Positions 1,336-44,334 of a stretch of DNA of 60,391 bases are shown one piece after another. The stretch is from NCBI GenBank assembly GCA_036478295.1, contig JAZGDW010000093.1, positions 1 to 60,391 of the forward strand, written 5' to 3'. The notes under the pieces were generated by a model. It was not told where the DNA came from. It ran no database searches and saw only the letters and a program-made list of their open reading frames with translations. The translations under genes were made by a program, and so were the position numbers. Numbering within the stretch: position 1 is the stretch's first letter; each line of letters opens with the position of its first letter. This DNA comes from Candidatus Krumholzibacteriia bacterium. GTDB taxonomy: Bacteria; Krumholzibacteriota; Krumholzibacteriia; WVZY01.

Positions 1336-3252
1336 TCAGCGGACGATAACTTTGTAGCTGATCGTGCCACCGGCGCCGGGCGGCAGAAAGAACGGAAGGT
1401 TCTTTGAAAACAGCACCTGCAGCAGACGAGTTCCGGCATCGTATTCACCCTCGTCGCCGTCCGCGGGGTCGAGCGTGAGGTAGAGCGTCGGCAAACCACC
1501 CCGCACCCATTCAACGTCCTGGCCGGGACCAAACGCGTCCGGCATGGGGTCCACGAACGGTGACATGAGATCGGAGATGACGATGTTCTGGAGGCTGTCC
1601 GCTCCGGAGTTGGTGAACGAGATCGTATACGTTACGACGTCACCGGGCGCCGCGGCCGCTATGTCCACACTTTTCAGCAGCGTGAGGACCTGATTGGCGA
1701 CGACCACGATGTCCACGGCCTGCGCCGACGTCGTTAGCGGTGTGTCGGAGATTACCTGCGACGCATCTACCGTCACGTTGAACGTGCTGCCCAGCGTCAT
1801 CGTGATCGGCACGAAGACGCGCACGAGTATCGACACCGCACTCTTGCCGCTTGCGGGGTCCATGTCGAGGTCACTCGCGACGAGCGGACGGTCGATCCCG
1901 TCAAGGATACCGTTTCCGTTCTCATCGAGAAACAAGGTCGTCACCGTGGACGAATCGGTTGTCACGGTGACCACAACCTGGCCCTGCGTGCCAACCGTTA
2001 TCAGGTGGGGAAAGTCCACAAAGCTGCCGGCGCTCCCCGTGAGCACCGAGCCCGGACTGATTGTCAGCGGCGCGACGTCCGCAAAATCGATTTGAATCGT
2101 ATCGCCGGCGTTGAGCGCGACCGGGCCGACGCTGTCCGGTGATATGGAAAGGAAACCGGACGGGTTCTGTTCGTTGACCAGGACGGATGTGCCACCCGTT
2201 ACCAGAAACGTGTAGCTGCCGTCGCCCGCCGTTACCTGCAGCAGTCCACCGACCAACTCGTTCACCGTGACACCGCCCAGTCCGGGCTCACCCGCCGTCA
2301 GGGCGCCGTCGTGGTTGAAGTCTTCGAAAACCGTTCCGGTCACAACCGCCGCCGTCTGCGTAACGAGCTCCACGCTTTCCGGATCGTTGGGAAGCATCGA
2401 CGAAAACGCGTCGATAATGGTCGAGAACTGCCCCGCGCCGACGCCCACCGGCACCTGGACCTTCACCGTATAGTTCAGCGATGCCCCGCCCCCGATGAGC
2501 GGCGTCCAGAAGGGCGCACTGTAATCGGTCACGCCGTCACTAATCAGCACGCTGCCCGCGGGCCAGCCGGCTGGAATCTGCCACGTGACCTGGAATGAAT
2601 CGGCGATCTCCCCGACGTTCCACACCTCGAGCGACGCCGTGTAATTCGTGCCCGGGTTGGCCGCGTGCAGGGAGACGCCGCCCTGTCCCGAGCCCAGCGT
2701 GCCGAACACGCCCAGGCCGTCGCCGTCGATAACGAGGTCCACCCGCGGCGGCGCGAGAACGGTGACGATGGCGGTGACACTTTCCCCAACTGTGGGATCG
2801 CGATTCGACACCACGTCGATTGTGTAGATGTAGACACCGGGCGGCGTACCGAAGGGCGCGTCCACGTGAAACGTGTAATCGCGGAAGTTCGGCGGGGGTA
2901 TCTTGTCGGAGGTAAACGGCTGCGGACCCCCTTGCATGGTCGCGGTCAGGCCGGGGATCGTGTTCCACGTGACCACGAAGTCGTCCGCGCGGCCGCCCTC
3001 GTTCTCCAGGCGCAAGATGAAGTCGAGACCACCGCCTGCCACGACAGTTTGCGAAGAAGTTCCGCCGGCGCCGGTGCCCACCGCCCCGTAAATGTTGTCG
3101 CCGTTGCCGTCGATCCAGGCGTCGACCACGGCTCCGCCCACCTGCGCAGGCACCGGTCTCACCACGGCTGCCAAAAAGAGCATCGTGGAAAGGCCTACGA
3201 GCACACCCCGTGCAGCCGTTCGTCTAGCGATATGCCGGAAAACCCAGCTCAT
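1336..3252 (-). CDS. secreted Ig-repeat surface protein (two ~130-aa CARDB/DUF11-like repeats, SdrD-B-like module, C-terminal DUF11-like domain)
   Basis: Signal peptide ARRTAARGVLVGLSTMLFLAAVVRPVPAQV. Repeated core motifs GGLDFILRLENEGGRADDFVVTW, TNYTASLEVWNVGEIADSFQVTW and GDVVTYTISFTNSGADSLQNIVI. SdrD-B-like VTGTVFEDFNHDGALTAGEPGLGGVTV. The start overlaps the upstream gene by 29 nt. Confidence 0.75.
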   Translation of the reverse strand: MSWVFRHIARRTAARGVLVGLSTMLFLAAVVRPVPAQVGGAVVDAWIDGNGDNIYGAVGTGAGGTSSQTVVAGGGLDFILRLENEGGRADDFVVTWNTIPGLTATMQGGPQPFTSDKIPPPNFRDYTFHVDAPFGTPPGVYIYTIDVVSNRDPTVGESVTAIVTVLAPPRVDLVIDGDGLGVFGTLGSGQGGVSLHAANPGTNYTASLEVWNVGEIADSFQVTWQIPAGWPAGSVLISDGVTDYSAPFWTPLIGGGASLNYTVKVQVPVGVGAGQFSTIIDAFSSMLPNDPESVELVTQTAAVVTGTVFEDFNHDGALTAGEPGLGGVTVNELVGGLLQVTAGDGSYTFLVTGGTSVLVNEQNPSGFLSISPDSVGPVALNAGDTIQIDFADVAPLTISPGSVLTGSAGSFVDFPHLITVGTQGQVVVTVTTDSSTVTTLFLDENGNGILDGIDRPLVASDLDMDPASGKSAVSILVRVFVPITMTLGSTFNVTVDASQVISDTPLTTSAQAVDIVVVANQVLTLLKSVDIAAAAPGDVVTYTISFTNSGADSLQNIVISDLMSPFVDPMPDAFGPGQDVEWVRGGLPTLYLTLDPADGDEGEYDAGTRLLQVLFSKNLPFFLPPGAGGTISYKVIVR

Positions 3253-6200
3253 TCAAAATCCATTCGGATAGAATCAATTGAACCCGGAAACTAAATCCAC
3301 TTTGCCACGCATCGTTCTGCGCCAGGTCGCGTTCCTCAAAACCGTTCACGCTGTAACCGGCGCCGAGACGAATGCGATCGAGAAACGTGCGGCCCAACTC
3401 GATGCCCGTACCCAGCTGCCGGGTACCGGCGCCATTCTGGCCCAGGTAGCGCGCCCACAGGTCGACGTCCCAGTGCCCGCGAAAATGGTGGACGTATTGC
3501 GACAGCAGCAAGTAGTTGTTGGTATTTTCGGAAATTCCGATGCTGTAGTCCTCCACATGCTTGAAGGCGAGCTTCAATCGGATCTCGTGGGCAGCCGCCA
3601 GAATCACGTTGACGTCGGTCGACAGCACGAGCCGTAACGTAATCGCGTCCGGGTCCACCGGCGAAAACCGATCGTACTCGTTTTTCAAAAGAAAAAGAGC
3701 CCTGATGCGCGACACGTCGGGGCGGTATATCGCTGCAATCCGGCCTTCGGAGCGGAGCGCGGTTCTGCCGAGATCCGGTGAATCCACCGAAAGCGCATCT
3801 CGAAAGAGTAACGCAATGCCGTTGCCGAACTGACGGATAGCATTCAGGCGAATGAGGTGGCGCGTCATCGACCGCTGCCAACGGACCTCGTATTGTCCCT
3901 CCACCAGTGCCGCGCCGCGATCGAGCCAGTTGAGACCCGACTTGACCGTTACGTATTCGTCGTCGAGCGAATTCGAAAACGAGCGAAAACCTTCGACGTC
4001 GAGCGATCCGTACAGATCCTGCTTGATCTGCGCCTTGTGCCGGATGCCAGACAGCGCGCCGATGCGTTCGTCCCCCGCGGTGCGGCTCATGGAGTACTTC
4101 GTGTAGGCGGATGATCCTTTGCCAGGATAGGATTCCACGCCCGCCAGCAGGCGTTGGGTGGCTGACCGCCCGTGCGCGGACAGGTACTCGTGGTTGACGA
4201 CGAGTTTGAGCTTGCCGAGAACGGGTACCGACGCCGTCGACTTCAACCGATCGGGGTAATCCTCCACCGTCTCGTCGGTGAGGTTCTTTTCCCACTGTGA
4301 GCGCACCTGCAGTCCGCGCCGCGCCTGCAGTCCGCCGCCGACTACGGACAGGAGGCTCTCGTCGTCTCTGCCCTGGTCTTCGTGTTCCGCCGCGCGAATA
4401 CCGCCGCTGATATGCGCCACGGGGGTTTCGAAGGTGCCGAGTACGAACAGGTTTTTCTTTTCTTCTCCCGTCTTGTCGAACTGGTGGACAAAGCCGTTCG
4501 ACTCGAGCAGGAAGTTTTTTGACACTCGCGTGCGCGAGTCGAACCCGGTCTTACGGCTGAACAGCTCGTGCTGGCCGCCCGTGAACGATGGATTGACGAA
4601 ATCACCGTCGACCCTGCGGTAGTACAGGGAATGTTTGCCGGTCGCGTTGCGCAAGGCGCCCTCGATCTTGTACGCGCTGCCGGCGCCGGCGAGCTCGTCC
4701 TGGCTGCGGGCGAACTCGCCCGACACGTTCAACGGACCCAATAACCCGGACCCATTGAGCCCGTAGAGCGCGTAATCGAAATCGCTTCCCCCCTGGGCCA
4801 CTGCGGTGGTACCGACTCGGTAGCGACTACCGCGGGCGACTTCGCCGCGAAAACCGTAGAGGTAGTCCGCCTCCTCGTCCGTCTCCACTTCGTAGATCGC
4901 AACGATGACAACGGGGTTGAAGGCGCGGGTGGTCACCGCCACCGGTTGCTTGAACAGAATCGCACCGTTGAAGTAGTTGATCGTGTAGTCGCGATTGATC
5001 ACCTGCGGGTGTACCTCGATAACCCTCTCCGGTTGAAAGCGGTCCCGGGTCTCGAGCACGATATTTACGGTGTTTTCCACAACGGGCGAGCGCGTGAGAT
5101 AATAGAACCCGCTGGTGCCGTCTCCCGGGATCTCGTCTTTGAACGTACTGAAGTCCGTCTTGGTCACAAACGCCTTCACGCGGTGATCGCCCGATCTGAA
5201 CTCGCCGTTGACACCGGTCGACGAGCGTTGGAATTTCAGGAACTCTCCCTCCGTCAGCGGGGTCTGGAAATCGCCATAACGCAAGAACGACTCGTTCTTT
5301 TGCAACGCGACGTAGTTGCCGCTCTCGGAGGGCGCGGCGAACCCGAGCTCCGAGGAGTCTCCGTAGAAGGAGTACTGGCGGTCCGGACCGAGCGTTTTGA
5401 GAACGGGATCCTTGTAACGCTTCTTGCTATCCAGCCTCACAGTAAGGTTGACGTCGCGGTAGAGCGTGCCTTGGACAAAGAGGCGTGAGACACCTTTGAA
5501 CTGCACGCTTTCGTCGAAGTCGTCAAGACCCAGGGGGTCCGCTGCACCGGACGTGTTGAACACGCCGACGGTGCCTTCTGCGATTCCCGTCACGAGCAGC
5601 GGCCGCTTGCGCGGAATGTACCTCAGGTCGACCGTTGCCTGCATGTCCCCTACCGTTACCACAATCTTGTGCCGGCCCGCCGTCGTGCTCGCCTTTATCC
5701 TCAGCGTCAGGTAACCGCCTTCGGTGGTGAGCTGCAGGCCCCGCTCGTCCGGACGCTTGTCCGTGCCGGCAAGAAGAGGCGCCCCCTCGCTGACCGTACC
5801 CACCACGCCGTCCACCACCGGCAGACCGACCTCATCGAGCACAGCGATGCGGATGACCCCGGTCGTCTGCCCGTCGGCGGGGACATAGCGCCGGCGCTCC
5901 TCGACGGCCAGGCGCGCTGGTCGGCCGGCGAGGGCCACCCGGAGGGTATCGCTTCGCGCGGGACCGCTGACCGGCCTGGCGTTCAAGACCAGCGAGTTCC
6001 ACCCGCGTTCGATCTTGACGCCGTAATAGGTGACGTCTTCCCATCCGGCTCTTACGTTTATGACTTTTTCACCGATTCGTTTTGCCGGGATGATGTCGCC
6101 GTTGCGTTCCAGAACGAAGGCGCTACCTACTGGCACCCGGACCCGGACGCGAATCCCGTCGCTGCGCGTATACACGTCACCGGCCGATGGTTCGAGAAAG

Positions 6201-8509
6201 CCAAATAGAATGCTATCGCTCACCTGGCTGCCCCGCGACAGGCCCGCCGCGGGTGTGCCCGGTGTATTCACACGCTGCTGGTCGCGGCCGCTGTCCGGGT
6301 CCCCGGTCTTCGATCCCGAGTCGTTTAGTCCGCGGGGCACTTCTTCCATCCAGCGCTCGACGACAAAATGCCGGGCTTTTCCCGGCTCCCCGCCACTCGC
6401 CAGCGCGCTGATTGCGGTGGTGCGCCGCTTCGCGTCCCAGGTGGCACCAGGCTCCCTCGTAGACCACCCGTTTCGCGACGCTTCGAAAACCAGTGATGCC
6501 CGTACGCGGCGAATGAGGGCGGTGTCCGGGGCGGCCGCTCTGAACGTCACCTCGCACTGGATCCCGCGTGAACGCCGGAAGTCTGAAAAATGATAGTGCG
6601 TGCCGTCACCACCTACGTCTTCTCCCCCACTTCGCACGGTCCTCTTCGCCCCGCGCAGGGCCGCCGGCACCTCGAGGACCAGCTCGGCGTCCCGCGGATG
6701 GGGTGAGTTGGTGGAAATGTCCCAGACGATCCTCACCTGAAACGTGTCGGGTAGCTCCTCCAGTTGCTCGATTTCGGTCGCAACGCGTTTGATCGAAGAG
6801 GCATCATCGAAGCTCACTCCCTGTGGCACGAAACTGATTTCCACGCGACGATTTCTGGCCCGCCCCTCCCGCGTCTGGTTGGCGGCGATGGGCTGCTGTG
6901 CGCCGTAACCACGCGCTTCGATGCGGTGCTCCGTGATGCCCTTGGCCATGATGTAGCGCTTTACCGCTTCGGCGCGCGCAACGGACAGCTCCAGGTTGGA
7001 TGCGAAGTCGTCGTTGTGCATTGGAACGTTGTCCGTGTGACCCTCGAGCAGCACCATCCATCCCGGGTTCTTGATGAGGAAAGTCCGTATGGGATCGAGA
7101 CGACCCAGCGTGCCGGTTTTCAAGAACGCCTTGCCAACTAGAAAATTGGAGCTCGGCACGGACGGTATCTGGTACAGCGCGCGGTGTCGCCGCGTCACGC
7201 TAACCAGCTCCTGGAGGGAAATGCTCCTCGTGCGCAGGTCACGGGCGTAGGATATCGTCCTCCGTACGGGGAACGACACCACGGCGTTGCCGCTGGCCAG
7301 CAGGTGAATCAACCGTTCGTTCCATGCGCCGCCGCCCCGCGGGGCGCCCGGAGTCACATCCGGTGGCAGCGTGCTCTCATCGAGCCGCAGCACCCGGTAC
7401 CCCGAGAAGACGCGCGGAATAGAGAATTTGCCGAGCGAATCGGTGACCGCGTACTCGCCGCTCTCCACGTACACGGCGACGCCTCCAACGCCCTGCTCGC
7501 CGCCACCGCGCTCACCGTCACCGTCTTCGTCCACGAACACGTCGCCGAGGATAATACCGTCGCTCGAGAAAATATCGTTTTCGATTCGGAGTACATTGAC
7601 CACCGGTCCGGCGAACACCATGTCGCCAGTGATCGCGATTCCCTGCGCTTCTCCAATGACTTTTGTTTTTCCCCTGGCCACGCGGCTGTTGGCGATGAAC
7701 TTGATGACCGTTTCGCGCTTCTCGCCCGGTGCCAGGGTACCGGCCGCCCAGCGAAGCACCGCCCCGCTCCGGGCGAACGACGGACTGGACAGGAAATTCA
7801 ACGTCGGCTGGACCATCTCGCGCACGATGACGTTGTCAACCTGCAAGCTGTCGCTGACATTCTGCACCGACACAATGAGTGTTACGACATCACCGAACCC
7901 CGCCGTATTGTCCTTGAACGTCTGGTCGAGCCGGATGACTGCCGCCGGATTGATCGTTGCGGGGATCACGATGCGGTCCACGGTTCGGTTTACCCGTGCC
8001 GTGTCGAGCCGCGAGCGCACCAGCAACCGCACCGACAGTGAATCGTTTATCACGTTGAAAAACGGCGTCCCGGGCGTCGAGATGGTCGTGAGCACCGACC
8101 GTGTCTCACCGACGGCCAGCGTTCCCAGCAGCACCGCACCGGGAGTCAGCGGAGACACCGTCAAGAGAGCGCCCGTCGTATCCCGGAACGTCACGCTGGT
8201 CCCCGGCGGCCAGCCGAGCGAATCGGCGACTTGCATCTCTACGACATCCGCTGCGCCACCCCCGTTGCTTACGTCGTTGCGAAACGTGATACTGAAATCC
8301 GTATACCCAACGGCGCCTAGTGAGACGTCGTCGGGACTGCCTTCTCCCCGGGGCAGGGCGCGGGCGTTCCGGTATGGCCCGAAATGCAAGGTTGACAACG
8401 ACGCCAGGGTGGTTACACGTACGACACTCGTTTCCACGACACCTGTTGTGTCGTTCACCGACCGGGCCTGGATCTCGACGTAGCTGTCACCCGGAGCGCC
8501 GTTCGCCAA
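3224..8509 (-). CDS. giant envelope protein, main body: DUF11-like Ig repeats, SdrD-B-like module, OmpA/MotB peptidoglycan-binding domain, Big_1-like Ig domain, ~800-aa C-terminal beta-rich (putative outer-membrane barrel) region
   Basis: OmpA motif WMVLLEGHTDNVPMHNDDFASNLELSVARAEAVKRYIMAKGITEHRIEARGYGAQQPIAANQTREGRARNRRVEISF (about nt 6824-7177). GDVVTLIVSVQNVSDSLQVDNVIV. GDVFVDEDGDGERGGGEQGVGGVAVYV. Big_1-like YVPADGQTTGVIRIAVLDEVGLPVVDGVVG...HKIVVTVGDMQATVDLRY. The C-terminus has amphipathic beta patterns (GTGIELGRTFLDRIRLGAGYSVNGF...QSGFSFRVQLIL). The listed TTG start has no signal peptide; the ORF continues upstream in another frame (see 8487-9095). Confidence 0.8.
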   Translation of the reverse strand: MANGAPGDSYVEIQARSVNDTTGVVETSVVRVTTLASLSTLHFGPYRNARALPRGEGSPDDVSLGAVGYTDFSITFRNDVSNGGGAADVVEMQVADSLGWPPGTSVTFRDTTGALLTVSPLTPGAVLLGTLAVGETRSVLTTISTPGTPFFNVINDSLSVRLLVRSRLDTARVNRTVDRIVIPATINPAAVIRLDQTFKDNTAGFGDVVTLIVSVQNVSDSLQVDNVIVREMVQPTLNFLSSPSFARSGAVLRWAAGTLAPGEKRETVIKFIANSRVARGKTKVIGEAQGIAITGDMVFAGPVVNVLRIENDIFSSDGIILGDVFVDEDGDGERGGGEQGVGGVAVYVESGEYAVTDSLGKFSIPRVFSGYRVLRLDESTLPPDVTPGAPRGGGAWNERLIHLLASGNAVVSFPVRRTISYARDLRTRSISLQELVSVTRRHRALYQIPSVPSSNFLVGKAFLKTGTLGRLDPIRTFLIKNPGWMVLLEGHTDNVPMHNDDFASNLELSVARAEAVKRYIMAKGITEHRIEARGYGAQQPIAANQTREGRARNRRVEISFVPQGVSFDDASSIKRVATEIEQLEELPDTFQVRIVWDISTNSPHPRDAELVLEVPAALRGAKRTVRSGGEDVGGDGTHYHFSDFRRSRGIQCEVTFRAAAPDTALIRRVRASLVFEASRNGWSTREPGATWDAKRRTTAISALASGGEPGKARHFVVERWMEEVPRGLNDSGSKTGDPDSGRDQQRVNTPGTPAAGLSRGSQVSDSILFGFLEPSAGDVYTRSDGIRVRVRVPVGSAFVLERNGDIIPAKRIGEKVINVRAGWEDVTYYGVKIERGWNSLVLNARPVSGPARSDTLRVALAGRPARLAVEERRRYVPADGQTTGVIRIAVLDEVGLPVVDGVVGTVSEGAPLLAGTDKRPDERGLQLTTEGGYLTLRIKASTTAGRHKIVVTVGDMQATVDLRYIPRKRPLLVTGIAEGTVGVFNTSGAADPLGLDDFDESVQFKGVSRLFVQGTLYRDVNLTVRLDSKKRYKDPVLKTLGPDRQYSFYGDSSELGFAAPSESGNYVALQKNESFLRYGDFQTPLTEGEFLKFQRSSTGVNGEFRSGDHRVKAFVTKTDFSTFKDEIPGDGTSGFYYLTRSPVVENTVNIVLETRDRFQPERVIEVHPQVINRDYTINYFNGAILFKQPVAVTTRAFNPVVIVAIYEVETDEEADYLYGFRGEVARGSRYRVGTTAVAQGGSDFDYALYGLNGSGLLGPLNVSGEFARSQDELAGAGSAYKIEGALRNATGKHSLYYRRVDGDFVNPSFTGGQHELFSRKTGFDSRTRVSKNFLLESNGFVHQFDKTGEEKKNLFVLGTFETPVAHISGGIRAAEHEDQGRDDESLLSVVGGGLQARRGLQVRSQWEKNLTDETVEDYPDRLKSTASVPVLGKLKLVVNHEYLSAHGRSATQRLLAGVESYPGKGSSAYTKYSMSRTAGDERIGALSGIRHKAQIKQDLYGSLDVEGFRSFSNSLDDEYVTVKSGLNWLDRGAALVEGQYEVRWQRSMTRHLIRLNAIRQFGNGIALLFRDALSVDSPDLGRTALRSEGRIAAIYRPDVSRIRALFLLKNEYDRFSPVDPDAITLRLVLSTDVNVILAAAHEIRLKLAFKHVEDYSIGISENTNNYLLLSQYVHHFRGHWDVDLWARYLGQNGAGTRQLGTGIELGRTFLDRIRLGAGYSVNGFEERDLAQNDAWQSGFSFRVQLILSEWILNELGFPAYR

Positions 8510-9095
8510 TACGAACGCGGCGGACAGGCCGACCTGGCCGCCGAGCCCGAGCCGCCAGGAACGCGGGGTCGTCCTCTCCCGTTTCGAAGCGACCGTTCGC
8601 GTTGGCGTCGTTGAAGAGGATGACCCGCGCGAGACCCACCGTCGACGGCGGGATAATCTGCTCGGCCACGGCGACCGAGTCGGGCGCGTTTCCGAGATTT
8701 TCGAGTATGAAATCCGCGTAGAGGGTGTCTCCCCCGAAACCTTGCACGGAGAACGCGGGCGAAACCACGGTACCTGGAGGTGTCAGCGAGATCGCGTAAA
8801 GCGGAAGGACATTGGTCGCGACCTGGTTGGAAAACGCGACGCGCATACCGGCATTCGTCAGGTATTCCGCGCGTGAACGGCTCGTAATCTGGGTACCCGC
8901 GGGCGTGATTGCGCTACGAGCGGCGCCGGTAGGCAAAAAGAGTCCCGTAATGGCCCCAAGAAGAAAGATTATCGGGGCCAGGCTGTGTTTCAGGGTTGCG
9001 CTACTGCGCAGGTTGCGCCTCGGAACTCTCAATTGATCAAACCCCTGAATGCCCAGCAGCGGATGGGGGGTTTTCACCCGCCCATCCGCTTGCAT
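8487..9095 (-). CDS. leader and first DUF11-like repeat of the giant protein, separated from the main body by a +1 frame change (frameshift, pseudogene or assembly error)
   Basis: Signal-like LAPIIFLLGAITGLFLPTGAARSAITPAGTQITSRSRAEY parallels the start of the 900-aa paralogue (AVITPAGTLIRNRSSATY). Core motif GDTLYADFILENLGNAPDSVAV. The last ~25 aa (ARARRPGRPVRRVRIGERRSG) look like out-of-frame junk, while the main-body frame reads ...LGLGGQVGLSAAFVLANGAPGDSYVEIQ across the junction. An in-frame TTG at 9032 would give a cleaner signal peptide (MRVPRRNLRSSATLKHSLAPIIF...). Confidence 0.6.
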   Translation of the reverse strand: MQADGRVKTPHPLLGIQGFDQLRVPRRNLRSSATLKHSLAPIIFLLGAITGLFLPTGAARSAITPAGTQITSRSRAEYLTNAGMRVAFSNQVATNVLPLYAISLTPPGTVVSPAFSVQGFGGDTLYADFILENLGNAPDSVAVAEQIIPPSTVGLARVILFNDANANGRFETGEDDPAFLAARARRPGRPVRRVRIGERRSG

Positions 9096-9192
9096 GGTTT
9101 ACAACCGCTTCGGTCGGCCACAGGGCCGCACCGTTTGCGGTGCCAGCCCGAGCCGTGGATGGCTACGCCGACGGCCGGCCGGCGCGGTGATC

Positions 9193-11895
9193 CTACTCGG
9201 CGATAATGCGCACGATGAAGCTGACACCCACCGTCGAGGCATCACCCGCCAGGAGCGTTCCCGTCATTACGAAACGAACGTTGGTCACGTTCGCATCGAA
9301 CCCGGCCGGGGCGCCGCCGCCACCGCTGGCGGGGGCATAGACCCAGGTCGTGCCACCGTCGTTCGAGTACGAAGGGGTCACAGCGGTGATGGCCGCCGGG
9401 GGAGTCCCGTTCGCCGCCGAGCCGACCCTGAACTGGGTAAACGCCGGGATCGCGTCGAGCACGACCACGGTGGTCAGTGTCGCGGCGCCCAGGTTCTGGT
9501 AGTCGGTCGTATAGGTCAACTCGGCACCCGGTGGCTGGTCGCCCAGGGGGTTCACCGATTTGGCGAGACCGAGCACGCCCGCGATGATCACCGTGGTGTC
9601 GATCGCGTCGTCCGAAACCAGGGTGACATTGCCGGTCGCCGTCAACGTACCCGTTTCCACCGTGCCGATGGTCACACCGGCGGGCACACTGAGTTGGACG
9701 ACCACTGTCGTCACCTCACCGGGGATGAGCGTCACATCGGTGATGGGGTTGTTGAGGATGTCATAGAAAACATACGTCCAACCCTGCGAGGACACGTAGC
9801 TCAGCGTGAACGTGTCGGCGATGTTTCCGGTGTTGGTAACGGTGTGCGTGTAAAAAACCGTGCCGCCCGGCGTGGTGTTGCCACTCAAATCGGGCGCAAA
9901 GTCAACCGCGGGAAAGCTGTTGACGGTAACCGTGTCGGCAATCGTATCGGACGCGGCGCCGTTGTTGGTCGAAGTCGCCGTGAACGATACGGGGTTGACG
10001 CCGGCGAGCGAACCGGCCGGCACGTCCACACGAGCGATGATGTTGAGCTCGGCGAAACCCGCGATCGGTCCCACCGACCCGATGGGAACGACTTCGCCCG
10101 CATCCAGCACGCCGTTGCCGTTGGTGTCCTCGTAGAAGGTCACCGTCCAGCCCGCCGGTGCCACCGACGACAGCGTGTAGGTGTCCGTTCCGGCGCTGGG
10201 ATTGATGACGTCCAGCGGAAAATCGACGAACGTTCCCGGGTTTGAATTGAGGTTCACGGAAGCGTCATTGGTGCCCGCGCCGCCGTTGTAGTTACCGATG
10301 TCGGCACTGGCCGCCAACACGCTCGACACGCGGTCGGTGGTGAGGTTGGTGACCACCGGGTCGTTGGTCGACTGCGCGCGCATGACCGCGTCGAACGGAC
10401 CACCGGCCGCCTGGCTGCCCGGAATGACCAGGCGAACCACGATGTCGACCGTCGCGCCTGGGGCGAGGGGTCCAACATCGGGAATGCCGTCCACGCCGGT
10501 GTCCACCAGGGGTGTCACGCCGTCGGACTGAAGTAATATGACGGACCAGCCCGCGGGAAGCGTCGACGCGCCGTCGAGGATAATGTTGACCTGGTCGGTG
10601 GCATTTCCGTCGTTGCGGATCGTGTTGACGAAATCGACGCTGGTGCCGGCGTAGGCTACCGCCACCGACTGCACGTCGTCGTCAAAATTCGGAGGTGTAC
10701 CCGCACCCGGTGCGCCCGAGGGGCCGATGAGCGGGTCGGGAACGGTACCGATGGTAACGGTGGCGTTGTTCGATACCACGATCGTCGGGTCAACGGTCAA
10801 CGCGTCGTTGTCGATGTAAGCGAGCGAGGCGGTGTTGCCTAGCACGCCCGCCGCCATTCCCAACGGGACCGTCACCTGGTACGAGAAGTTGTAGCTCTGC
10901 GCAGGGACGATGGCGCCGCTCGTAATATAACCGACGGCGACGTCATCCGGCCCCGGCACCAAACTCCAGTTCCATGTCTCGGGACTGCCCGCCGTCGAGT
11001 TGCCGGCGTTCAAATACAACACGGTGCCGGCGGCGGGAGCTCCCGTAGGCCCACCGAATATGGGCAGCGGGAGACCGGTGCCGGCATCCACGGGGATGAC
11101 GTCGTAGATGAGCACGCCGGTCAGTGCGACAGATGCCACCGTTACGCCGTTGGCCGAATTGTTCCCGAGGTTGCTACCGGAAAAACTGTAGGTGATTTGA
11201 CTTCCCGGCAGAACGAGCGCCGGCGCCGCGGCGAGGTTCGCCGTCATCACCGCGTCGTTCACCACGTTGGTCAGGTGGTAATTCCGGGTATCGATCTGCA
11301 GCGCGTCTCCGACAGAGGCGCCTTCGACTCCGATGTAGGCGACCTCTCCGGCCGTTGCCGCCACCGGTATGACGTACGCGAGGATAATGCTCACCGTCGC
11401 GCCGGAGGCCATCGGGCCGACGTTGCCGGGTACACCGCCGGCGCTGACCACCGGCTCGCCCACGTTGACAACACCGTCTCCGTTGAGGTCGTGATAAATG
11501 GTCACATCGGAGGCGGCGATCGCCATGGTGGTGTTCGCCGCATCCAGAATGGGAAAGAGCGAAAAACTGTCGTTGTCATTTCCCGTGTTCGTCAGGTCGT
11601 AACGGAAATACACCGTCATGCCCGGCAGTACATTCTGGATGGCTGCGGGGGTAACCGGCGGCGTTTCGCCCGAGTCGTCCGGCAGGATCGATACACCGTA
11701 CACCGGCAGCACCACGGTTACGACTTCGTTTGACGTCGACGAAAAAGTATTACCGGCCATATCCTCGTAGGTCGCGGATGACCGGTTCCTTATCAGCGTA
11801 CCTGCAGGCGTGATGACCGCGAGAACACTCGCCGCGGCAAACAGCAGCATGGCCGCCAATAGCAAAGGCAGCAGGAAATATGTCTTCAACCTCAT
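9193..11895 (-). CDS. secreted 900-aa multi-repeat DUF11/CARDB-like Ig-domain surface protein
   Basis: Signal peptide MRLKTYFLLPLLLAAMLLFAAASVLA. At least six copies of the core G..v.y...v.N.Gn..D.f.l: PGMTVYFRYDLTNTGNDNDSFSL, GSQITYSFSGSNLGNNSANGVTV, GTSVDFVNTIRNDGNATDQVNII, GTFVDFPLDVINPSAGTDTYTLS, GGTVFYTHTVTNTGNIADTFTLS, GAELTYTTDYQNLGAATLTTVVV. DxNGDG-type loops (YHDLNGDGVVNVGEP, FYEDTNGNGVLDAGE). Confidence 0.8.
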   Translation of the reverse strand: MRLKTYFLLPLLLAAMLLFAAASVLAVITPAGTLIRNRSSATYEDMAGNTFSSTSNEVVTVVLPVYGVSILPDDSGETPPVTPAAIQNVLPGMTVYFRYDLTNTGNDNDSFSLFPILDAANTTMAIAASDVTIYHDLNGDGVVNVGEPVVSAGGVPGNVGPMASGATVSIILAYVIPVAATAGEVAYIGVEGASVGDALQIDTRNYHLTNVVNDAVMTANLAAAPALVLPGSQITYSFSGSNLGNNSANGVTVASVALTGVLIYDVIPVDAGTGLPLPIFGGPTGAPAAGTVLYLNAGNSTAGSPETWNWSLVPGPDDVAVGYITSGAIVPAQSYNFSYQVTVPLGMAAGVLGNTASLAYIDNDALTVDPTIVVSNNATVTIGTVPDPLIGPSGAPGAGTPPNFDDDVQSVAVAYAGTSVDFVNTIRNDGNATDQVNIILDGASTLPAGWSVILLQSDGVTPLVDTGVDGIPDVGPLAPGATVDIVVRLVIPGSQAAGGPFDAVMRAQSTNDPVVTNLTTDRVSSVLAASADIGNYNGGAGTNDASVNLNSNPGTFVDFPLDVINPSAGTDTYTLSSVAPAGWTVTFYEDTNGNGVLDAGEVVPIGSVGPIAGFAELNIIARVDVPAGSLAGVNPVSFTATSTNNGAASDTIADTVTVNSFPAVDFAPDLSGNTTPGGTVFYTHTVTNTGNIADTFTLSYVSSQGWTYVFYDILNNPITDVTLIPGEVTTVVVQLSVPAGVTIGTVETGTLTATGNVTLVSDDAIDTTVIIAGVLGLAKSVNPLGDQPPGAELTYTTDYQNLGAATLTTVVVLDAIPAFTQFRVGSAANGTPPAAITAVTPSYSNDGGTTWVYAPASGGGGAPAGFDANVTNVRFVMTGTLLAGDASTVGVSFIVRIIAE

Positions 11896-11906
11896 GATCT
11901 TCTACC

Positions 11907-12401
11907 TCACTTGACAAAGGTCCGGTATGAGACTGTGATCTCGCCGGTGGGAGCGAAGGTGTCCGACAGGACCCAACGAATGTGGGTCACCATGTCCGGA
12001 GTTGCCTCGATTTGCGTTTTGGTACCGTCCGGGTTTTGCCGGGTGATGACGACCGGCCACTCTCTGAACGTCCGGCCGCCGTCGATGCTGAACTCGACAC
12101 GGCCCCGGTCCGGCCGCGTCGCGGACTCTTCGATGTACTCGGCTCCGGATGGAATCGGGTCGGTGATGAAAATGTTCCGCACCGCATCCGAACTGTTGTT
12201 CCGGTAGGTCAGACGATATTCGATAATGTCTTTGGGTCTTGCCCGGTCGGCGGGCAAAAAGTTTTCCTTGCCGTCCTCGCTAATGACGACCCGGAATGCT
12301 TCGAGATTCCCCGTCAGGCCTGCGTCGCTCGCCGCTGACCCCAGCGGCACCAGCAGCGCAAGCGCAAGCACGCCGACGGCGTAAAAACGCTTCGCTCCCA
12401 T
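11907..12401 (-). CDS. small secreted single-domain DUF11-like protein, first gene of the operon
   Basis: Signal peptide MGAKRFYAVGVLALALLVPLGSAAS. One core motif KDIIEYRLTYRNNSSDAVRNIFITDPIPSG. Stop lies 11 nt before the next gene's start. Confidence 0.75.
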   Translation of the reverse strand: MGAKRFYAVGVLALALLVPLGSAASDAGLTGNLEAFRVVISEDGKENFLPADRARPKDIIEYRLTYRNNSSDAVRNIFITDPIPSGAEYIEESATRPDRGRVEFSIDGGRTFREWPVVITRQNPDGTKTQIEATPDMVTHIRWVLSDTFAPTGEITVSYRTFVK

Positions 12402-12630
12402 AAGAGCCTCCTTTTTTCGCTCGAAAGGGCGACAGTAATGGCGAGTGGGCTACGCCCCGCGAGGGGCCTAGCTCCAATCGCCAATCGCTACGTCGCGTCA
12501 GGTCGGCGCAGCAACTCTCTACTACTTTGGTGGGGGCGATCGTGGAGTAGCGGCTCCCTGACTCCCCCGGGGGTTCGGGCGGGAATTGCAAGGAGCGAAC
12601 CAGACTCTTGGGGACGCGTGGGGAATTTCG

Positions 12631-12646
12631 TGCAACATGGTGACCA
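12631..12646 (-). promoter_or_regulatory. candidate sigma54 (-24/-12) promoter directed into the Ig-repeat operon
   Basis: The minus strand reads TGGTCACCATGTTGCA against consensus TGGCACG-N4-TTGCA. The GG and GC dinucleotides are at the canonical 12-nt register and TTGCA is perfect, with three mismatches in the -24 box. It lies ~230 nt upstream of the ATG at 12401. An NtrC-type activator with a GAFTGA motif is encoded divergently. Confidence 0.3.
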
Positions 12647-12765
12647 ATCTGGGTTTAGCGCGCCCGTACGGGTCGCCACCGGGTCGTTGGAGGCACGATA
12701 ACCCACGCTGGACCACGACAGACAGGGGTTCCCGGGTGCCGCCCCCTCTGCGGGGCATGGCAATC

Positions 12766-12779
12766 TGCAAAGCGTTGCA
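12766..12779. promoter_or_regulatory. short inverted repeat TGCAA-AGCG-TTGCA, possible activator (UAS) site
   Basis: Two perfect 5-bp arms separated by 4 bp. It sits 120 bp upstream (minus-strand sense) of the candidate -24/-12 element and ~65 bp upstream of the kinase ATG at 12844. Confidence 0.2.
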
Positions 12780-12843
12780 TTTCGCACCTGGCGGCAGAGC
12801 AAAAACTGTTGAATATTCTCCACAAAACCCGGATCATCCAGGT

Positions 12844-13911
12844 ATGACGATCTCTGTGACGAACCGATACCGGGTGCTGATCGTGCTGGTCGTTTCACTG
12901 GCGACCGTGGCCTTTCACTACGGATTCATCATCAAGCCCACCCACGCGGAGAACGATCTGTTCCACGCGATTCACGGGCGTCTCTGCTACATCCCCATCA
13001 TCCTGGGCGCCATCTGGTTCAGTATGTGGGGGGGGCTGGCGACGGCGCTGTTCATCATCGTGCTGACGCTTCCCTACAGTTTCGTCGGCGAGGGCGTCCA
13101 TCAGGGATCGCTAATCGGTGAAATGACGGAAATGGTTTTCTACCTCGCCATCGGCATGACCGCCGGCATCCTCATCGAACTGCAGCGGGGCGAGCGAAAA
13201 AAAGGCGAAGCCCTCTCCCGCGAGCTGGCCAAGCAGGAACACCTGTCCAGCCTCGGGCAGATGGCGGCGGGACTCGCCCACGAGATAAAGAACCCACTGG
13301 GGTCCATCAAAGGATCGGCGGAGATACTCAGCGATGACTTTCCCGAGGATTCGCCCAAGCACGATCTGCTTCAGGTGCTTTCCAAAGAGACCGGCCGCCT
13401 GAACCGCGTGGTGGAGGATTTTCTGAACTTTGCCAGGCCGCGGGCCTTGAAGCGGAGCCCCACCCGCATCAACACCCTGCTGCAGGACACGATTTCCCAG
13501 ATCGAAATAGACAGCCGCGCTCAAAAAGTGGAGATCACCAGTGATTTCGATGAATCGATCGCGGAACCACCGTTCGACGCCGAACAACTGCACCAGGTTT
13601 TCCTGAATATCTCACTGAACGCCATCAACGCCATGCCAGACGGCGGAAGCCTGCGCATCGAGACGCGCGCAAAAGCGGTGGAGGGAAAACCCCACGTTGT
13701 CGTCCGCTTCACGGACAGCGGTGTCGGCATGGCCGAGGGGGAGCTCGACAAGATATTCGATCCGTTCTACACGACGACCGAGAAGGGGACGGGGCTCGGT
13801 TTGTCGATATCCCATACCATCGTTCAAAACCACGGCGGATACATCAGCGCTGAGAGGAATGACGAAAAGGGAACCACAATTACTATCACGCTCCCCGTTA
13901 TCGAGGGTTAG
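12844..13911 (+). CDS. membrane sensor histidine kinase (4 predicted TM helices, no large periplasmic domain; HisKA + HATPase_c)
   Basis: H-box LSSLGQMAAGLAHEIKNPLGSIKGSAEIL. N/G boxes NISLNAINAMPDGG and DSGVGM...PFYTTTEKGTGLGLS. I chose the ATG at 12844 (MTISVTNRYRVLIVLVV...) rather than the track start at 12586, whose upstream extension is non-protein-like. Confidence 0.85.
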   Translation: MTISVTNRYRVLIVLVVSLATVAFHYGFIIKPTHAENDLFHAIHGRLCYIPIILGAIWFSMWGGLATALFIIVLTLPYSFVGEGVHQGSLIGEMTEMVFYLAIGMTAGILIELQRGERKKGEALSRELAKQEHLSSLGQMAAGLAHEIKNPLGSIKGSAEILSDDFPEDSPKHDLLQVLSKETGRLNRVVEDFLNFARPRALKRSPTRINTLLQDTISQIEIDSRAQKVEITSDFDESIAEPPFDAEQLHQVFLNISLNAINAMPDGGSLRIETRAKAVEGKPHVVVRFTDSGVGMAEGELDKIFDPFYTTTEKGTGLGLSISHTIVQNHGGYISAERNDEKGTTITITLPVIEG

Positions 13912-13914
13912 CCA

Positions 13915-15282
13915 ATGCAACAGGCATGCATCTACATCGTGGACGACGACGAGAGCAACCTCAAGGTGCTCGGATACATCCTGGAGGATGCCGGTTACAA
14001 GGTGACCCGTCTCTCTTCCGGGCGATCTGCGATCGACCATATCGACAAGCAGCGCCCCGACCTGGTGCTGAGCGACATCAAGATGCCGAAGATGGACGGA
14101 CTGAGTCTTTTGAAGGAAATCAAACGTCGTGATGCCACGATACCGGTAGTCATGCTGACCGCGTTCGGATCCGTGGAAACGGCCGTCGAAGCGATGAAGG
14201 TGGGCGCAGCCGACTATCTCACGAAACCCATCAACAGGGACGAGCTGACGCTGACGGTCGAGAAAATCCTTCGCATGCGCCGCCTCGAGCAGGAGAACAT
14301 CACCCTCAAGGAATCGCTGAGGGACAAGTTCCGGCTGAGTAACATCGTCGGGCTGTCCTCCGCAATGCAAAACGTGTTCAAAGCCGTCGATCAGGTTGCT
14401 GCGACCGATGCCACGGTACTCGTTACCGGTGAGAGCGGCACCGGCAAGGAACTAGTTGCGAAAGCCATCCACTTCAACAGCCTGCGCAAGGAACACCGCC
14501 TGGTTATCGTCAACTGCGCAGCGATACCTTCTGAATTACTCGAGAGCGAGATGTTCGGCCACGTCAAGGGCGCCTTTACCGGGGCGATTCGGAATAAGCA
14601 GGGCAAGTTTCAACTGGCCGACGGGGGCTCACTGTTTCTCGACGAAATCGGATCACTCTCGCTGCCGCTGCAGGCCAAGCTGTTGCGGGCGCTGCAAGAG
14701 AAAGAGATTGAACGGGTCGGCGATGACAGGACTACCGTGGTGGATGTTCGGATCATTGCTGCAACCAACCGCCCCTTGCCCGAACTGATCCGTTCGGGCG
14801 ATTTCAGGGAGGACCTCTACTACCGGTTGAACGTGGTGCGAATAGAGCTGCCGCCCCTGCGCGATCGCACGTCCGACATCGGGCCGCTGGTCGAGCATTT
14901 CATCAGAAAGCACGCGGGCGATCGCAACGTCACCTTCACCAAGGACGCCGTGGGCGCCCTCGAGCAGTACTACTGGCCGGGCAACGTGCGCGAGTTGGAA
15001 AACTTCTGTGAACGTACCATCCTGATGAGCAAAGAGGACACGATCCGTGGAGACGCCGTCGAAGAGCATCTCCGTGCAATGTCCCGGGAACAGGATGCCA
15101 TGTCGACCGAGCCGTCGGCGTCCGGCCGCATGAGTCTGCCCGAGATGGAGCGCCAGGCCGTACGCGACGCGCTCGTCGCCTGCGACTGGAATCAATCGCG
15201 CGCGGCCCGCCTGCTGGGTATACCACGGCATGTTCTCATCTACCGGATGAAGAAATTCACCATCCAGCGTGAGAGCAGTTGA
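13915..15282 (+). CDS. sigma54-dependent response regulator (REC + AAA+ + Fis-type HTH; NtrC family)
   Basis: REC domain DLVLSDIKMPKMDG. Walker A GESGTGKE. Sigma54-contact loop GAFTGA (HVKGAFTGAI). LFLDEIG. C-terminal HTH NQSRAARLLGIPRHVLIYRMKKF. Start is 4 nt after the kinase stop. Confidence 0.92.
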   Translation: MQQACIYIVDDDESNLKVLGYILEDAGYKVTRLSSGRSAIDHIDKQRPDLVLSDIKMPKMDGLSLLKEIKRRDATIPVVMLTAFGSVETAVEAMKVGAADYLTKPINRDELTLTVEKILRMRRLEQENITLKESLRDKFRLSNIVGLSSAMQNVFKAVDQVAATDATVLVTGESGTGKELVAKAIHFNSLRKEHRLVIVNCAAIPSELLESEMFGHVKGAFTGAIRNKQGKFQLADGGSLFLDEIGSLSLPLQAKLLRALQEKEIERVGDDRTTVVDVRIIAATNRPLPELIRSGDFREDLYYRLNVVRIELPPLRDRTSDIGPLVEHFIRKHAGDRNVTFTKDAVGALEQYYWPGNVRELENFCERTILMSKEDTIRGDAVEEHLRAMSREQDAMSTEPSASGRMSLPEMERQAVRDALVACDWNQSRAARLLGIPRHVLIYRMKKFTIQRESS

Positions 15283-15299
15283 GCGCCTGGTCGTGACGG

Positions 15300-16616
15300 T
15301 CAGAGTCGGTCCATGCCGCCGGCTTCACCGCGCCTTACCAGTATGAACTTGAGGGCAATGGGGCCAATCAACTGGTTGAGTGCCACGACGGCCAGTACGA
15401 TGGTCTTGAGTTCCGCGCCCCACGGCAGCCTGCGCTCGAAAACGGTGGCGATGCCGATCGTCACCCCCGCCTGGGACAAGAGACCCAGCCACAGACTCTT
15501 TGAATGTGGCCGCACCGCCCGCACCACCCTGCCCGCCAGCAGCGATCCCGCATGAAAGGCGGCGGCGCGCATCACAACCAGGATTATCGCCAGCAGCCAC
15601 ATCAAGCGCAGCGCATCGAGGTTGATCGACGCTCCGGAAATGGCGAAAAAGATCACGTAAACGGGCATGGCGCTTCGCTCCAGCGCCTTGATCAGGCGGT
15701 CCCCCATGACAGTGAAGTTCTGAATGATAAAACCGGCGATCATGAAGGCCAGCAGGGGCTCGAGATGATAATGGCGGCAGACGATGCTGCCGACGAAGCC
15801 CACTCCGAGAAGGAAAATCGGCAGTTGCTCGCCCACCCAGCGAATGTAGGCCGCCAGCACCGAGCCAAAGAACACGCCGGCGGCAATGGACCCGAACACC
15901 TCTATCAACAGATCTTTGGCGAACAAGAGCGAAAACCCTTCGCCGGGGATGGTCAACGCACGCACCGTAGGAACGATCAACGCGGCGAGTACGAGGACGA
16001 CGACGTCGAGTATCACCGTGACGCCGATAATCAGGTCGGTGTAGGGGCCGCGCGATCGGGTCTCGGTCACCACGCCGATCGTCGTCGCCGGTGAGCGCGC
16101 CGCCGTCACGACACCGAGCAACAGGGCCGCGGCGATTACCGCACGCGGACCCCCGCCGGCGAGAAAAGCGATGTGGTCCCGTGCGAAGAAGGCGACAAGC
16201 AAGGCGCCCACGAAGGAGAGCAACACGTGCCCGCCGATCACGCTCAGGATTGATGCTTTGCCTTTCTTGAGAAAACTCATCCGTATTTCGCCGCCGGCGA
16301 TAAGTGCTATTACAGCCAGCGCCACGTCGTCGAAAATCTGCAGGCGCCTCACCACTTCGAGCGAAAGGATGTTCATGACGAAGGGTCCACAGAGCACACC
16401 CGCCAGGATGTACCCCGAGATCTCCGGTAGTTTTATACTCTTCAGCACCCTGGCGGCGAAGAAGGCGAAGATCAGGATGAAGCCAAGGCAGAAGGTTGCC
16501 TCTTCCCCGGTAACGCCACGGCCTGCTATGGGCGAGAGGACCACGACTGCCGCCAGGGCGAGGAGCACCGCAATGGGCAGCAACCTGCCCGGGCTTATGA
16601 GCGGTTGTCTGGTCAT
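15300..16616 (-). CDS. cation:proton antiporter (CPA/Na_H_exchanger family), membrane domain only
   Basis: 438 aa, polytopic. LPEISGYILAGVLCGPFVMNIL is typical of the family N-terminus. No RCK/KTN domain. Overlaps the upstream paralogue by 4 nt. Confidence 0.85.
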   Translation of the reverse strand: MTRQPLISPGRLLPIAVLLALAAVVVLSPIAGRGVTGEEATFCLGFILIFAFFAARVLKSIKLPEISGYILAGVLCGPFVMNILSLEVVRRLQIFDDVALAVIALIAGGEIRMSFLKKGKASILSVIGGHVLLSFVGALLVAFFARDHIAFLAGGGPRAVIAAALLLGVVTAARSPATTIGVVTETRSRGPYTDLIIGVTVILDVVVLVLAALIVPTVRALTIPGEGFSLLFAKDLLIEVFGSIAAGVFFGSVLAAYIRWVGEQLPIFLLGVGFVGSIVCRHYHLEPLLAFMIAGFIIQNFTVMGDRLIKALERSAMPVYVIFFAISGASINLDALRLMWLLAIILVVMRAAAFHAGSLLAGRVVRAVRPHSKSLWLGLLSQAGVTIGIATVFERRLPWGAELKTIVLAVVALNQLIGPIALKFILVRRGEAGGMDRL

Positions 16617-44317: not shown

Positions 44318-44334
44318 CGGACAGGCGAAATCAC

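Follow-up and report, generated by a model that had tools for sequence, protein, structure and literature searches.

Positions 1336 to 15282 of contig JAZGDW010000093.1 (assembly GCA_036478295.1), a 60,391-nucleotide stretch from a Candidatus Krumholzibacteriia bacterium that we refer to at its full length as the window, carry a minus-strand operon for four signal-peptide proteins composed of immunoglobulin (Ig)-like repeats, one of them a giant with a predicted outer-membrane barrel at its C-terminus, together with a divergently transcribed histidine kinase and NtrC-type response regulator. Our preferred reading, to which we give a probability of about 0.45, is that this is a sigma-54-inducible envelope system with a dedicated outer-membrane platform, on which a fibre or adhesin of Ig domains is built or displayed. 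From the way in which domains appear to be divided between the termini of the encoded proteins, we propose that the subunits would be joined head to tail, a hairpin from one completing a truncated domain in another, and that the joint might in addition be locked by an isopeptide bond.

Truncated CLIPPER domains and orphan hairpins

Open reading frame (ORF) calls place the genes for a 164-aa protein at 11907-12401, a 900-aa protein at 9193-11895, the giant at 3224-9095 and a 638-aa 'tail' protein at 1336-3252, all on the minus strand. The 11-nt gap between the first two genes and the 29-nt overlap between the last two are exact, as stated in the original prediction of four to five co-directional, tightly spaced genes. 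Profile scans against curated Pfam and NCBIfam cut-offs also bear out the claim of a shared Ig-repeat (DUF11-like) set, since all four structural proteins match DUF11, now renamed CLIPPER (PMC12617251), or CLIPPER_2 at or above the Pfam or TIGR01451 cut-offs. The PF01345 scores (cut-off 24.6) are 28.0 for the 638-aa protein, 26.4 for the giant and 24.9 for the 164-aa protein; the 900-aa protein scores 29.1 against PF24346 (CLIPPER_2; cut-off 27); and TIGR01451 (cut-off 24) gives 39.3, 43.0 and 24.0, with the 43 bits belonging to the 164-aa protein. The 900-aa, giant and 638-aa proteins show the repeat motif G..v.y...v.N.Gn..D.f.l, which corresponds to the strand B-C signature of CARDB/NEW3/CLIPPER-type domains, and SdrD_B-like segments are present in the giant and the 638-aa protein.

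A CLIPPER hidden Markov model (HMM) of 115 positions, iterated over the retrieved proteins, reaches position 108 or beyond in 244 domain hits among the retrieved homologues and locus ORFs, and can therefore align the last two strands of the fold where these are present. In 61 ORFs of related loci, a set which includes the 164-aa and 638-aa proteins of the window, the CLIPPER domain ends at HMM positions 81-87 (nearly all at 82-84), which is the end of strand F, and does so 0-6 residues (mostly 1-2) from the stop codon. By the same criteria, no ORF in the related loci has a complete CLIPPER domain at its C-terminus. The 900-aa family falls outside this count, its HMM alignment ending earlier, and its truncation at strand F is seen by eye and by hhalign. 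An hhalign comparison of 78 C-terminal domains, including those of the 900-aa orthologues, with 152 complete domains (probability 99.4%, E = 1.8e-20) aligned template columns 1-97 of 134, after which the proteins end.

A candidate for the missing portion is found at the opposite end of other subunits. The mature N-termini of the 900-aa protein, VITPAGTLIRNRSSATYEDMAGNTFSSTSNEVVTVVL, and of the giant, AITPAGTQITSRSRAEYLTNAGMRVAFSNQVATNVL, each contain an orphan hairpin which begins 2-5 residues past the signal-peptide cleavage site and aligns to HMM positions 79-115, corresponding to the G-H hairpin of the domain; hhalign places the donor hairpins on template columns 77-132 (P = 0.003). The isolated hairpins gave no match in the Pfam scan, for which they are too short. 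Shaft-like proteins and giants of Latescibacterota, Campylobacterota (for example VGVPAGTEIKNVAHLAY), Fidelibacterota, Erythrobacter and Acinetobacter have the same G-H hairpin behind the signal peptide, whereas the small protein never carries it. The N-terminal segment TPAGTxIRNR[SA][ST]ATY[EQ]D hardly varies among 17 orthologues of the 900-aa protein, and the hairpin is the most conserved stretch of that protein (identity 0.79-0.86 vs 0.68 overall).

The parsed 900-aa protein consists of a signal peptide, the orphan G-H hairpin (aa 27-62; 11710-11817, minus strand), five complete Ig/CLIPPER/CARDB-like domains and a C-terminal half-CLIPPER domain (aa 775-900; 9196-9573, minus strand), a layout suggestive of a final hairpin relocated to the N-terminus. 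Residues 615-751 score 40.6 bits against the NCBIfam 'choice-of-anchor T' model, below its cut-off of 70, which suggests that the middle repeats are related to domains of proteins with alternative surface-anchoring signals.

The secreted 638-aa protein has CARDB/NEW3-like repeats, an SdrD_B-like domain and a C-terminal half-CLIPPER domain (aa 517-638; 1339-1704, minus strand), in which HMM positions 1-83 align to residues 523-637 of 638. It represents the C-terminal half of what is a ~1,320-aa protein in most relatives, aligning to residues 722-1320 of the homologues in loci L001 and L002, and these longer relatives have an N-terminal 'NGSFETG' jelly-roll-like head. The window gene is without this jelly-roll or lectin-like head ('GELVxNGSFETGDFG') and yet has its own signal peptide; long forms of the tail gene are found in L001 (10732-14694) and L005 (~13080-17003), and L009 has a short form like that of the window. 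Head domains of the accessory proteins vary among lineages and include lectin-like, LTD and P_proprotein types.

The secreted 164-aa protein comprises a single CLIPPER-type Ig domain with no N-terminal hairpin. We retrieved 93 homologues of 150-170 aa, and residues 50-163 of its 164 align to HMM positions 8-83 of 115. An AlphaFold2 model of this protein has a mean predicted local distance difference test (pLDDT) score of 86 and contains 10 strands. A sequence search of the PDB with the 164-aa and 900-aa proteins returned no relatives.

A possible isopeptide triad split between the same two elements

In the CLIPPER domain of PDB entry 9IFR, Lys715 of strand A is bonded to Asn806 of strand G with an Asp nearby (PMC12617251). 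Positions K5 and N91 of the HMM align to this Lys and Asn. The Lys and Asp fall in the half-domain (the acceptor) and the Asn in the hairpin (the donor). In the 900-aa family (17 sequences) the acceptor Lys and Asp and the donor Asn are all invariant, the Lys being residue 779 and the Asn residue 35 in the window protein and the Asp that of a 'V.DA.P' motif, and a triad arises only if the hairpin and the half-domain, at opposite ends of the protein, are taken together. Because the three residues fall at the triad positions of 9IFR, the joint between 900-aa subunits may lock covalently without a sortase. The strand-A Lys and strand-C Asp are likewise invariant in the tail family (12 sequences), where a donor Asn is not applicable. 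In the small protein, to which the donor position again does not apply, the Lys column holds either Lys or Arg, and the Asp is invariant in Latescibacterota; in the giant hairpin, which has no acceptor columns, the donor residue is Asn, Ser or Gly. The sole complete CLIPPER domain of the giant has the Lys, a Glu in place of the Asp and no strand-G Asn.

Comparison of the giant hairpin with strand A of the small protein hints that these two are partners: Asn in the former accompanies Lys in the latter at 5 loci, and Ser or Gly accompanies Arg at 7, with 3 exceptions, a covariation drawn from few, phylogenetically structured loci and uncorrected for phylogeny. The pair in the window is Ser/Arg, and the corresponding joint would therefore be non-covalent, if formed at all.

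The giant combines a wall-binding domain with a predicted large barrel

The giant contains, in order, a signal peptide, the N-terminal G-H hairpin (~8796-8915), CARDB-like domains, a complete CLIPPER domain (7646-7933), an SdrD_B-like domain (~7310-7567), an OmpA-like peptidoglycan-binding domain (6812-7156), an unassigned region of ~200 aa, two Ig-like domains (5615-6205) and a beta-barrel with a plug-like insert (3269-5596), all on the minus strand. As had been noted from the sequence, PF00691 (OmpA) is matched in the giant only (57.6 bits vs a cut-off of 27.2, aa 477-554 of the 1761-aa ORF); for every full-length NCBIfam equivalog, MotB, Pal, TssL and TraB among them, the score stays below the cut-off. 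A likeness to Myxococcus TraB is limited to the OmpA domain, and this candidate was rejected.

The ~1,000 C-terminal residues of the giant have no Pfam, NCBIfam or PDB sequence match. We modelled aa 760-1761 with AlphaFold2 from an alignment of 61 sequences (pLDDT 82.5, predicted template modelling (TM) score 0.68). Model residues 440-988 form 32 long strands in succession with turns of 2-8 residues, and these are preceded by eight further strands and by a cluster of short strands resembling an inserted plug. In this confident model the last ~790 aa fold into a barrel whose long strands number at least 32 and probably 36-40. The region previously described as a C-terminal beta-rich portion of about 800 aa is indeed beta-rich, and is more accurately divided into the two Ig-like domains followed by this barrel. 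A Foldseek search of the PDB with the barrel returned Deinococcus SlpA/SDBC, MtrB, LptD, SprA, PapC and TonB-dependent receptors at a probability of 1.00 and TM scores of at most 0.21; because the matches are all outer-membrane barrels and all distant, the region is best described as an outer-membrane barrel belonging to no solved family. A match of this region to a known family within a described system, which would have counted against the original prediction, was thus not found. The likeness to TonB-dependent receptors is only generic, and an electron conduit is discounted by the absence of haem motifs.

Proteins of Psychrobacter and Erythrobacter align at their C-termini with the barrel region, and the giants of Erythrobacter, Psychrobacter and Campylobacterota have no OmpA domain. 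In plasmid p4 of Acinetobacter haemolyticus w12 (L059, CP085288.1; LIS44_16300-16330), a separate 360-aa OmpA-family gene (11112-12194) directly follows the giant, and this division into two genes supports a functional link between the platform and the wall anchor. Since the OmpA domain is periplasmic and only ~40 residues away, the N-terminal arm of the giant would also be periplasmic, unless it threads back through the barrel.

Conservation of the operon across phyla

We estimated the size of the barrel family with an exhaustive phmmer search from the barrel region. This yielded 2,249 clusters (50% identity) at E <= 1e-3 and 932 at E <= 1e-30, most of the hits being proteins of 1,000-2,500 aa that match at the C-terminus. 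Loci were recovered from Latescibacterota, Krumholzibacteriia, Fidelibacterota, Campylobacterota (Sulfurovum, Arcobacter), Eremiobacterota and one cyanobacterium, as well as from Erythrobacter, Psychrobacter and plasmids of A. haemolyticus and Thermus; the match on plasmid pTT27 of Thermus thermophilus (HB27, TT_RS10775-10780) is weaker and partial.

The gene order small-900-giant-tail is kept in 17 of 17 Latescibacterota/Krumholzibacteriia loci with enough flank, and the pairing of small protein and giant across at least five phyla; the neighbourhood is therefore conserved, as the original prediction required. A relative of the small protein of 150-165 aa stands beside the giant in Fidelibacterota, Eremiobacterota and Erythrobacter, and in those Campylobacterota loci with adequate upstream flank, and the core pair recurs on the Acinetobacter plasmid; the giant is always accompanied by a protein of ~160 aa and at least one longer Ig-repeat protein. 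We found no description of the operon in the literature. Papers on the Litorilinea grappling-hook, the type XI secretion system and Synechococcus signal peptides mention DUF11 or DUF1194 and are unrelated.

A conserved sigma-54-type promoter element

The divergent kinase gene (12844-13911, plus strand) most plausibly starts at the ATG at 12844, which gives the intergenic region between it and the operon a length of 442 bp. Within this region the only sigma-54 match is a -24/-12 element of the form TGG-N9-TTGC, TGGTTCGCTCCTTGCA, at 12602-12587 on the minus strand, 201 nt upstream of the 164-aa gene. An element of the form TGG[A/T][A/T]C-N5-[C/T]TTGC lies 109-138 nt upstream of the small gene in 17 of 17 related loci, or 18 of 18 with the window. 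The evidence for sigma-54 is this positional conservation, because matches to TGG-N9-TTGC are no commoner in the window than chance predicts (19 found vs 22 expected). A scan of the operon for sigma-70 promoters and terminators gave none above shuffled controls, and a search of the intergenic region for inverted or direct repeats gave none that was convincing. A 12-mer, TGCAGATTGCCA (within ATGCAACGCTTTGCAGATTGCCA; 12758-12769, minus strand), lies ~165 nt upstream of the sigma-54 element and has counterparts with at most 2 mismatches in the upstream regions of 8 of the 17 related loci; an activator might bind there, or the 12-mer could belong to the promoter of the kinase.

The kinase is a membrane protein in which several transmembrane helices at the N-terminus are followed by HisKA and HATPase_c domains, and it lacks a large periplasmic domain; its ZraS/AtoS-like NCBIfam matches are below cut-off. 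The NtrC-family regulator (13915-15282, plus strand) contains Response_reg (119.6 bits), Sigma54_activat (237.8 bits) and HTH_8 domains, and a match to TIGR02915 fell below cut-off, so that regulation of the PEP-CTERM type was set aside. Orthologues of the regulator with 60-80% identity occupy the same divergent position in 6 related loci. The earlier description of a divergent kinase/NtrC pair is therefore accurate for the window, down to the domains and the 442 bp, but the pair is adjacent to the operon in only 7 of 16 loci: the window and 6 of the 15 others with at least 3.4 kb of upstream flank (present in L002, L005, L008, L009, L015 and L024, absent in the other nine). The element is also kept in L001, L012 and L021, which have a Na+/H+ exchanger as upstream neighbour and neither kinase nor regulator nearby. 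Consequently, sigma-54 dependence appears to be a property of the operon, for which it looks universal on promoter sequence, and the adjacent two-component system a lineage-specific one. Tight spacing and a single conserved sigma-54 promoter also argue against unrelated adhesins with independent promoters, a finding that would have refuted the original prediction. With a C-terminal region that matches no known family and a conserved neighbourhood, the operon continues to look like an uncharacterised envelope or surface-fibre system.

Proposed mechanism and alternative explanations

Under our preferred reading, the subunits would be exported by Sec, after which the N-terminal hairpin of one protein would complete the C-terminal half-domain of another, head to tail. 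The tail protein, as an acceptor-only subunit with a lectin-like head in relatives, would form the tip; n copies of the 900-aa protein, which is both donor and acceptor, would form the shaft; and the donor-only giant would form the base, its barrel in the outer membrane and its OmpA domain bound to the wall. The acceptor-only 164-aa protein would cap or chaperone a free hairpin, most likely that of the giant. In principle the barrel would be wide enough to pass or sheathe folded Ig domains. The conserved sigma-54 promoter would drive the operon, in the lineage of the window through the adjacent kinase and NtrC-type activator. A more speculative part of the scheme is that the acceptor Lys and Asp and the donor Asn may form an isopeptide lock. 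Archaeal threads, in which donor-strand complementation is combined with intermolecular isopeptide bonds, provide a precedent for complementation with sortase-free isopeptide bonds and an operon-encoded cap. The anatomy fits the original division into one anchor or pore and several substrate or fibre subunits, as far as we infer function. The strongest version of the scheme, a diderm pilus needing neither chaperone nor sortase, in which docking completes a split CnaA-type domain and a spontaneous intermolecular isopeptide bond follows, as in a natural SpyTag/SpyCatcher, and in which the fibre is extruded through and anchored by a wall-tethered barrel of 36-40 strands, seems to us unlikely to hold as a whole.

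Several observations weigh against hairpin complementation, or against the system being functional in its source organism. With no hairpin supplied, the 164-aa protein is modelled at pLDDT above 90 over 124 residues, and three strands (aa 46-50, 118-122 and 128-132) are predicted on top of the A-F set; these may fill the G-H position, in which case the C-terminal domain of this protein would be a complete variant fold. Its nearest structural neighbours in the PDB, RrgB and group B Streptococcus (GBS) pilins, are weak Foldseek matches (E ~6e-3, TM 0.35). The donor-hairpin alignments are short and their statistics modest. Conservation of the triad does not extend to the small protein, where Arg stands in strand A of 68 of the 94 Latescibacterota sequences and Campylobacterota have Asn at the Asp position, nor to the giant of the window, which has Ser and no Asn at the donor position of its hairpin, and the Lys/Asn covariation has the limits given above. 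Topology is a further difficulty, as the arm bearing the giant's donor hairpin would be in the periplasm unless threaded through the barrel. Finally, the giant is frameshifted in the window (see below) and the system may therefore be inactive in the organism from which the sequence derives.

A periplasmic location of the arm would suit a sorting pathway resembling the type IX secretion system (T9SS), in which the half-CLIPPER domain is a signal recognised in the periplasm by the giant, possibly by its hairpin, and folded Ig-repeat cargo passes through the barrel to be released or displayed as monomers, without polymerising. Every accessory protein has the conserved Ig-like domain at its very C-terminus, which recalls the C-terminal domain (CTD) of T9SS cargo, the barrel is in the size range of SprA, and lineage-variable heads (lectin-like, LTD, P_proprotein) are what one would expect of cargo. 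Sorting of this kind nevertheless leaves unexplained why the hairpin, the most conserved part, stands at the N-termini of the 900-aa and other shaft-like proteins; the giant has no homology to SprA or to any T9SS component, and the operon encodes no peptidase to remove the signal. We regard it as doubtful. A structural role, with the giant linking the outer membrane to peptidoglycan or acting as a large porin in the manner of SlpA, OmpM or OmpA and its partners reinforcing the envelope as a surface layer or as a scaffold that is periplasmic or associated with the outer membrane, draws on the well-supported OmpA domain, on the SlpA/SDBC barrels as best Foldseek matches, on the separate OmpA gene within the Acinetobacter operon, and on a kinase whose lack of a large periplasmic sensor domain is compatible with envelope-stress control. 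Giants without an OmpA domain in Erythrobacter, Psychrobacter and Campylobacterota are hard to accommodate in such a role, however, and the TM score to SlpA is only ~0.2; sigma-54 control and location on plasmids in Acinetobacter and Thermus point to an accessory trait, and lectin-like heads and adhesin-type domains in the partners suit proteins that face outward. A tether of this type is accordingly improbable in our estimation. Clustered but uncoupled fibrillar adhesins of the CLIPPER type, the giant being self-sufficient through its barrel and OmpA domain, would account for the repeats, which are typical adhesin stalks, and an OmpA-anchored example has been described in Acinetobacter silvestris. 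Uncoupled genes would not be expected to keep their order and pairing across phyla, to be separated by 11 nt or overlapped by 29 nt behind a common conserved promoter, or to show a complementary pattern of hairpins and half-domains in which the small protein is always acceptor-only, and we consider this explanation very unlikely.

Whichever of these applies, the barrel family is large (2,249 clusters) and spread over many phyla, and its barrel is covered by neither Pfam nor NCBIfam and has no solved relative. If the system turns out to assemble fibres or to secrete proteins, the short list of known outer-membrane assembly pathways would gain a new entry. A real split-domain joint would make it the first bacterial pilus of the donor-strand type to dispense with a chaperone, could make it the first natural sortase-free, covalently polymerising Gram-negative pilus, and would offer ready-made orthogonal 'tag/catcher' pairs for protein engineering; should the covalent split-domain pilus prove true, the barrel would also be among the largest single-chain barrels known. 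The presence of the system in cultivable Erythrobacter sanguineus, on the A. haemolyticus plasmid and on pTT27 of T. thermophilus makes these ideas directly testable.

The frameshift and the surrounding genes

The giant, put at ~1,950 aa in the original prediction, is one gene of ~1,940 aa, although in the window it is presented as two ORFs (8487-9095, 202 aa, and 3224-8509, 1761 aa) by a 1-nt insertion; translation in the adjacent frame carries the protein on. Alignment with L005, the closest relative in which the gene is intact (74% identity in the barrel), places the single extra base at ~8553, and the extra G sits in GGCGGCTCGGG (window ~8545-8560, minus strand). Homologues of the giant (n=47) are unbroken at 1,793-1,975 aa. 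A second public contig (L060) has the same frameshift, which is not independent evidence because its DNA is 100% identical over 9 kb, and the frameshift could be an assembly error or mark a real pseudogene. In the Latescibacteria locus L002 (7261-9961), the 900-aa orthologue is broken into ORFs of 305 aa and 576 aa, and the end of the first resembles out-of-frame sequence. Frameshifts seem to be common in long, GC-rich repeat genes of metagenome-assembled genomes.

The remainder of the 60-kb window encodes ATP synthase, peptidases, a P-type ATPase, glycosyltransferase-like TPR proteins and similar genes. In agreement with what had been reported for the immediate neighbourhood, no domain of a sortase, usher, PapD-like chaperone, type V secretion system, T9SS or type IV pilus was found anywhere in the window. 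Long ORFs overlap on opposite strands at 18287-20326 (minus) and 18431-21355 (plus); the 679-aa minus-strand ORF is probably spurious, because the Peptidase_M1 Pfam match is confined to the plus-strand ORF. An M1 peptidase also adjoins the regulator in L002. A second kinase, cytoplasmic and of the GAF-PAS type (40497-42215, minus strand), adjoins two paralogous PMT_2 + TPR proteins (42377-46293, plus strand), which are putative family 39/83-type glycosyltransferases with no connection to the operon that we could see.

Comparison with known systems

The system would work most like chaperone-usher pili, without the usher and chaperone which define them. Both have Sec-exported Ig-like subunits with an incomplete fold, the missing strand or strands being proposed here to come from the N-terminus of the next subunit, as well as acceptor-only and donor-only parts and a dedicated outer-membrane barrel with a plug-like insert and periplasmic Ig-like domains. 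The operon proteins, however, have no PF00577 match at E <= 0.01 and the window no PapD-like chaperone; the barrel has at least 32 predicted strands compared with 24 in the usher, and PapC (7lhg_C) ranks only 23rd in Foldseek with a query-based TM score (TMq) of 0.21. The donated element is here a two-strand hairpin of a CnaA-type CLIPPER domain, the subunits are of 160-1,300 aa and multi-domain, and the platform itself bears a donor hairpin and an OmpA domain. With the T9SS the system shares a very large single-chain barrel, an Ig-like domain at the extreme C-terminus of the partners, and occurrence in the Fibrobacteres-Chlorobi-Bacteroidetes (FCB) group. It differs in that SprA (6h3j_A; TMq 0.19) is no better a match than LptD or MtrB, TIGR04189 is not matched (the NCBIfam hits of the giant are of the OmpA type only), and the window has no Por/Gld/Spr genes; the half-domain is of the CLIPPER and not the T9SS CTD family, and the system occurs also in Proteobacteria, Campylobacterota and Thermus.

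Head-to-tail subunits joined by N-terminal donor-strand complementation are also a feature of archaeal threads (Saci_0406) and of TasA and bundling pili, and the threads in addition have sortase-independent intermolecular isopeptide bonds at their junctions and a cap protein in the operon. Their subunits are single-domain and unrelated, however, with no outer membrane to cross and no barrel platform, and the bond in threads joins an N-terminal amine to Asn. The Acinetobacter silvestris adhesin B9T28_05395 (9IFR) has in common with our proteins the CLIPPER family, the triad positions and, as a Gram-negative example, an OmpA-like anchor, and the CnaA/CnaB sortase pili provide, in RrgB and the GBS pilins, the closest structural neighbours of the 164-aa model. 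In those systems the isopeptide bonds are intramolecular and formed in complete domains, or polymerisation is by sortase and LPXTG, whereas here a domain is apparently divided between the termini of different proteins and a giant barrel is added. There is no sortase in the window, and the subunits end in '...YRTFVK', '...VRIIAE' and '...KVIVR' with neither an LPXTG motif nor a hydrophobic tail.

The order of parts in the giant, with Ig and OmpA domains ahead of a barrel of at least 32 strands, is the reverse of that in inverse autotransporters, and intimin and invasin are not matched. Inverse autotransporters have an N-terminal LysM domain and a 12-strand barrel followed by a C-terminal Big passenger. 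The closest Foldseek matches of the barrel itself are SlpA/SDBC and the MtrB component of MtrCAB. SlpA has a 30-strand barrel together with a wall-binding domain, and MtrB forms a sheath around an elongated partner that crosses the outer membrane. The TM scores to these proteins are nevertheless only 0.18-0.21, the giant has neither an SLH domain nor a coiled coil or haem motif, and its partners are different. Taking together the functions that we infer from sequence, predicted structure and comparative genomics, we rate the system as standing outside every described secretion or pilus system: its CLIPPER and OmpA domains are familiar, and the machine which they appear to compose is new.

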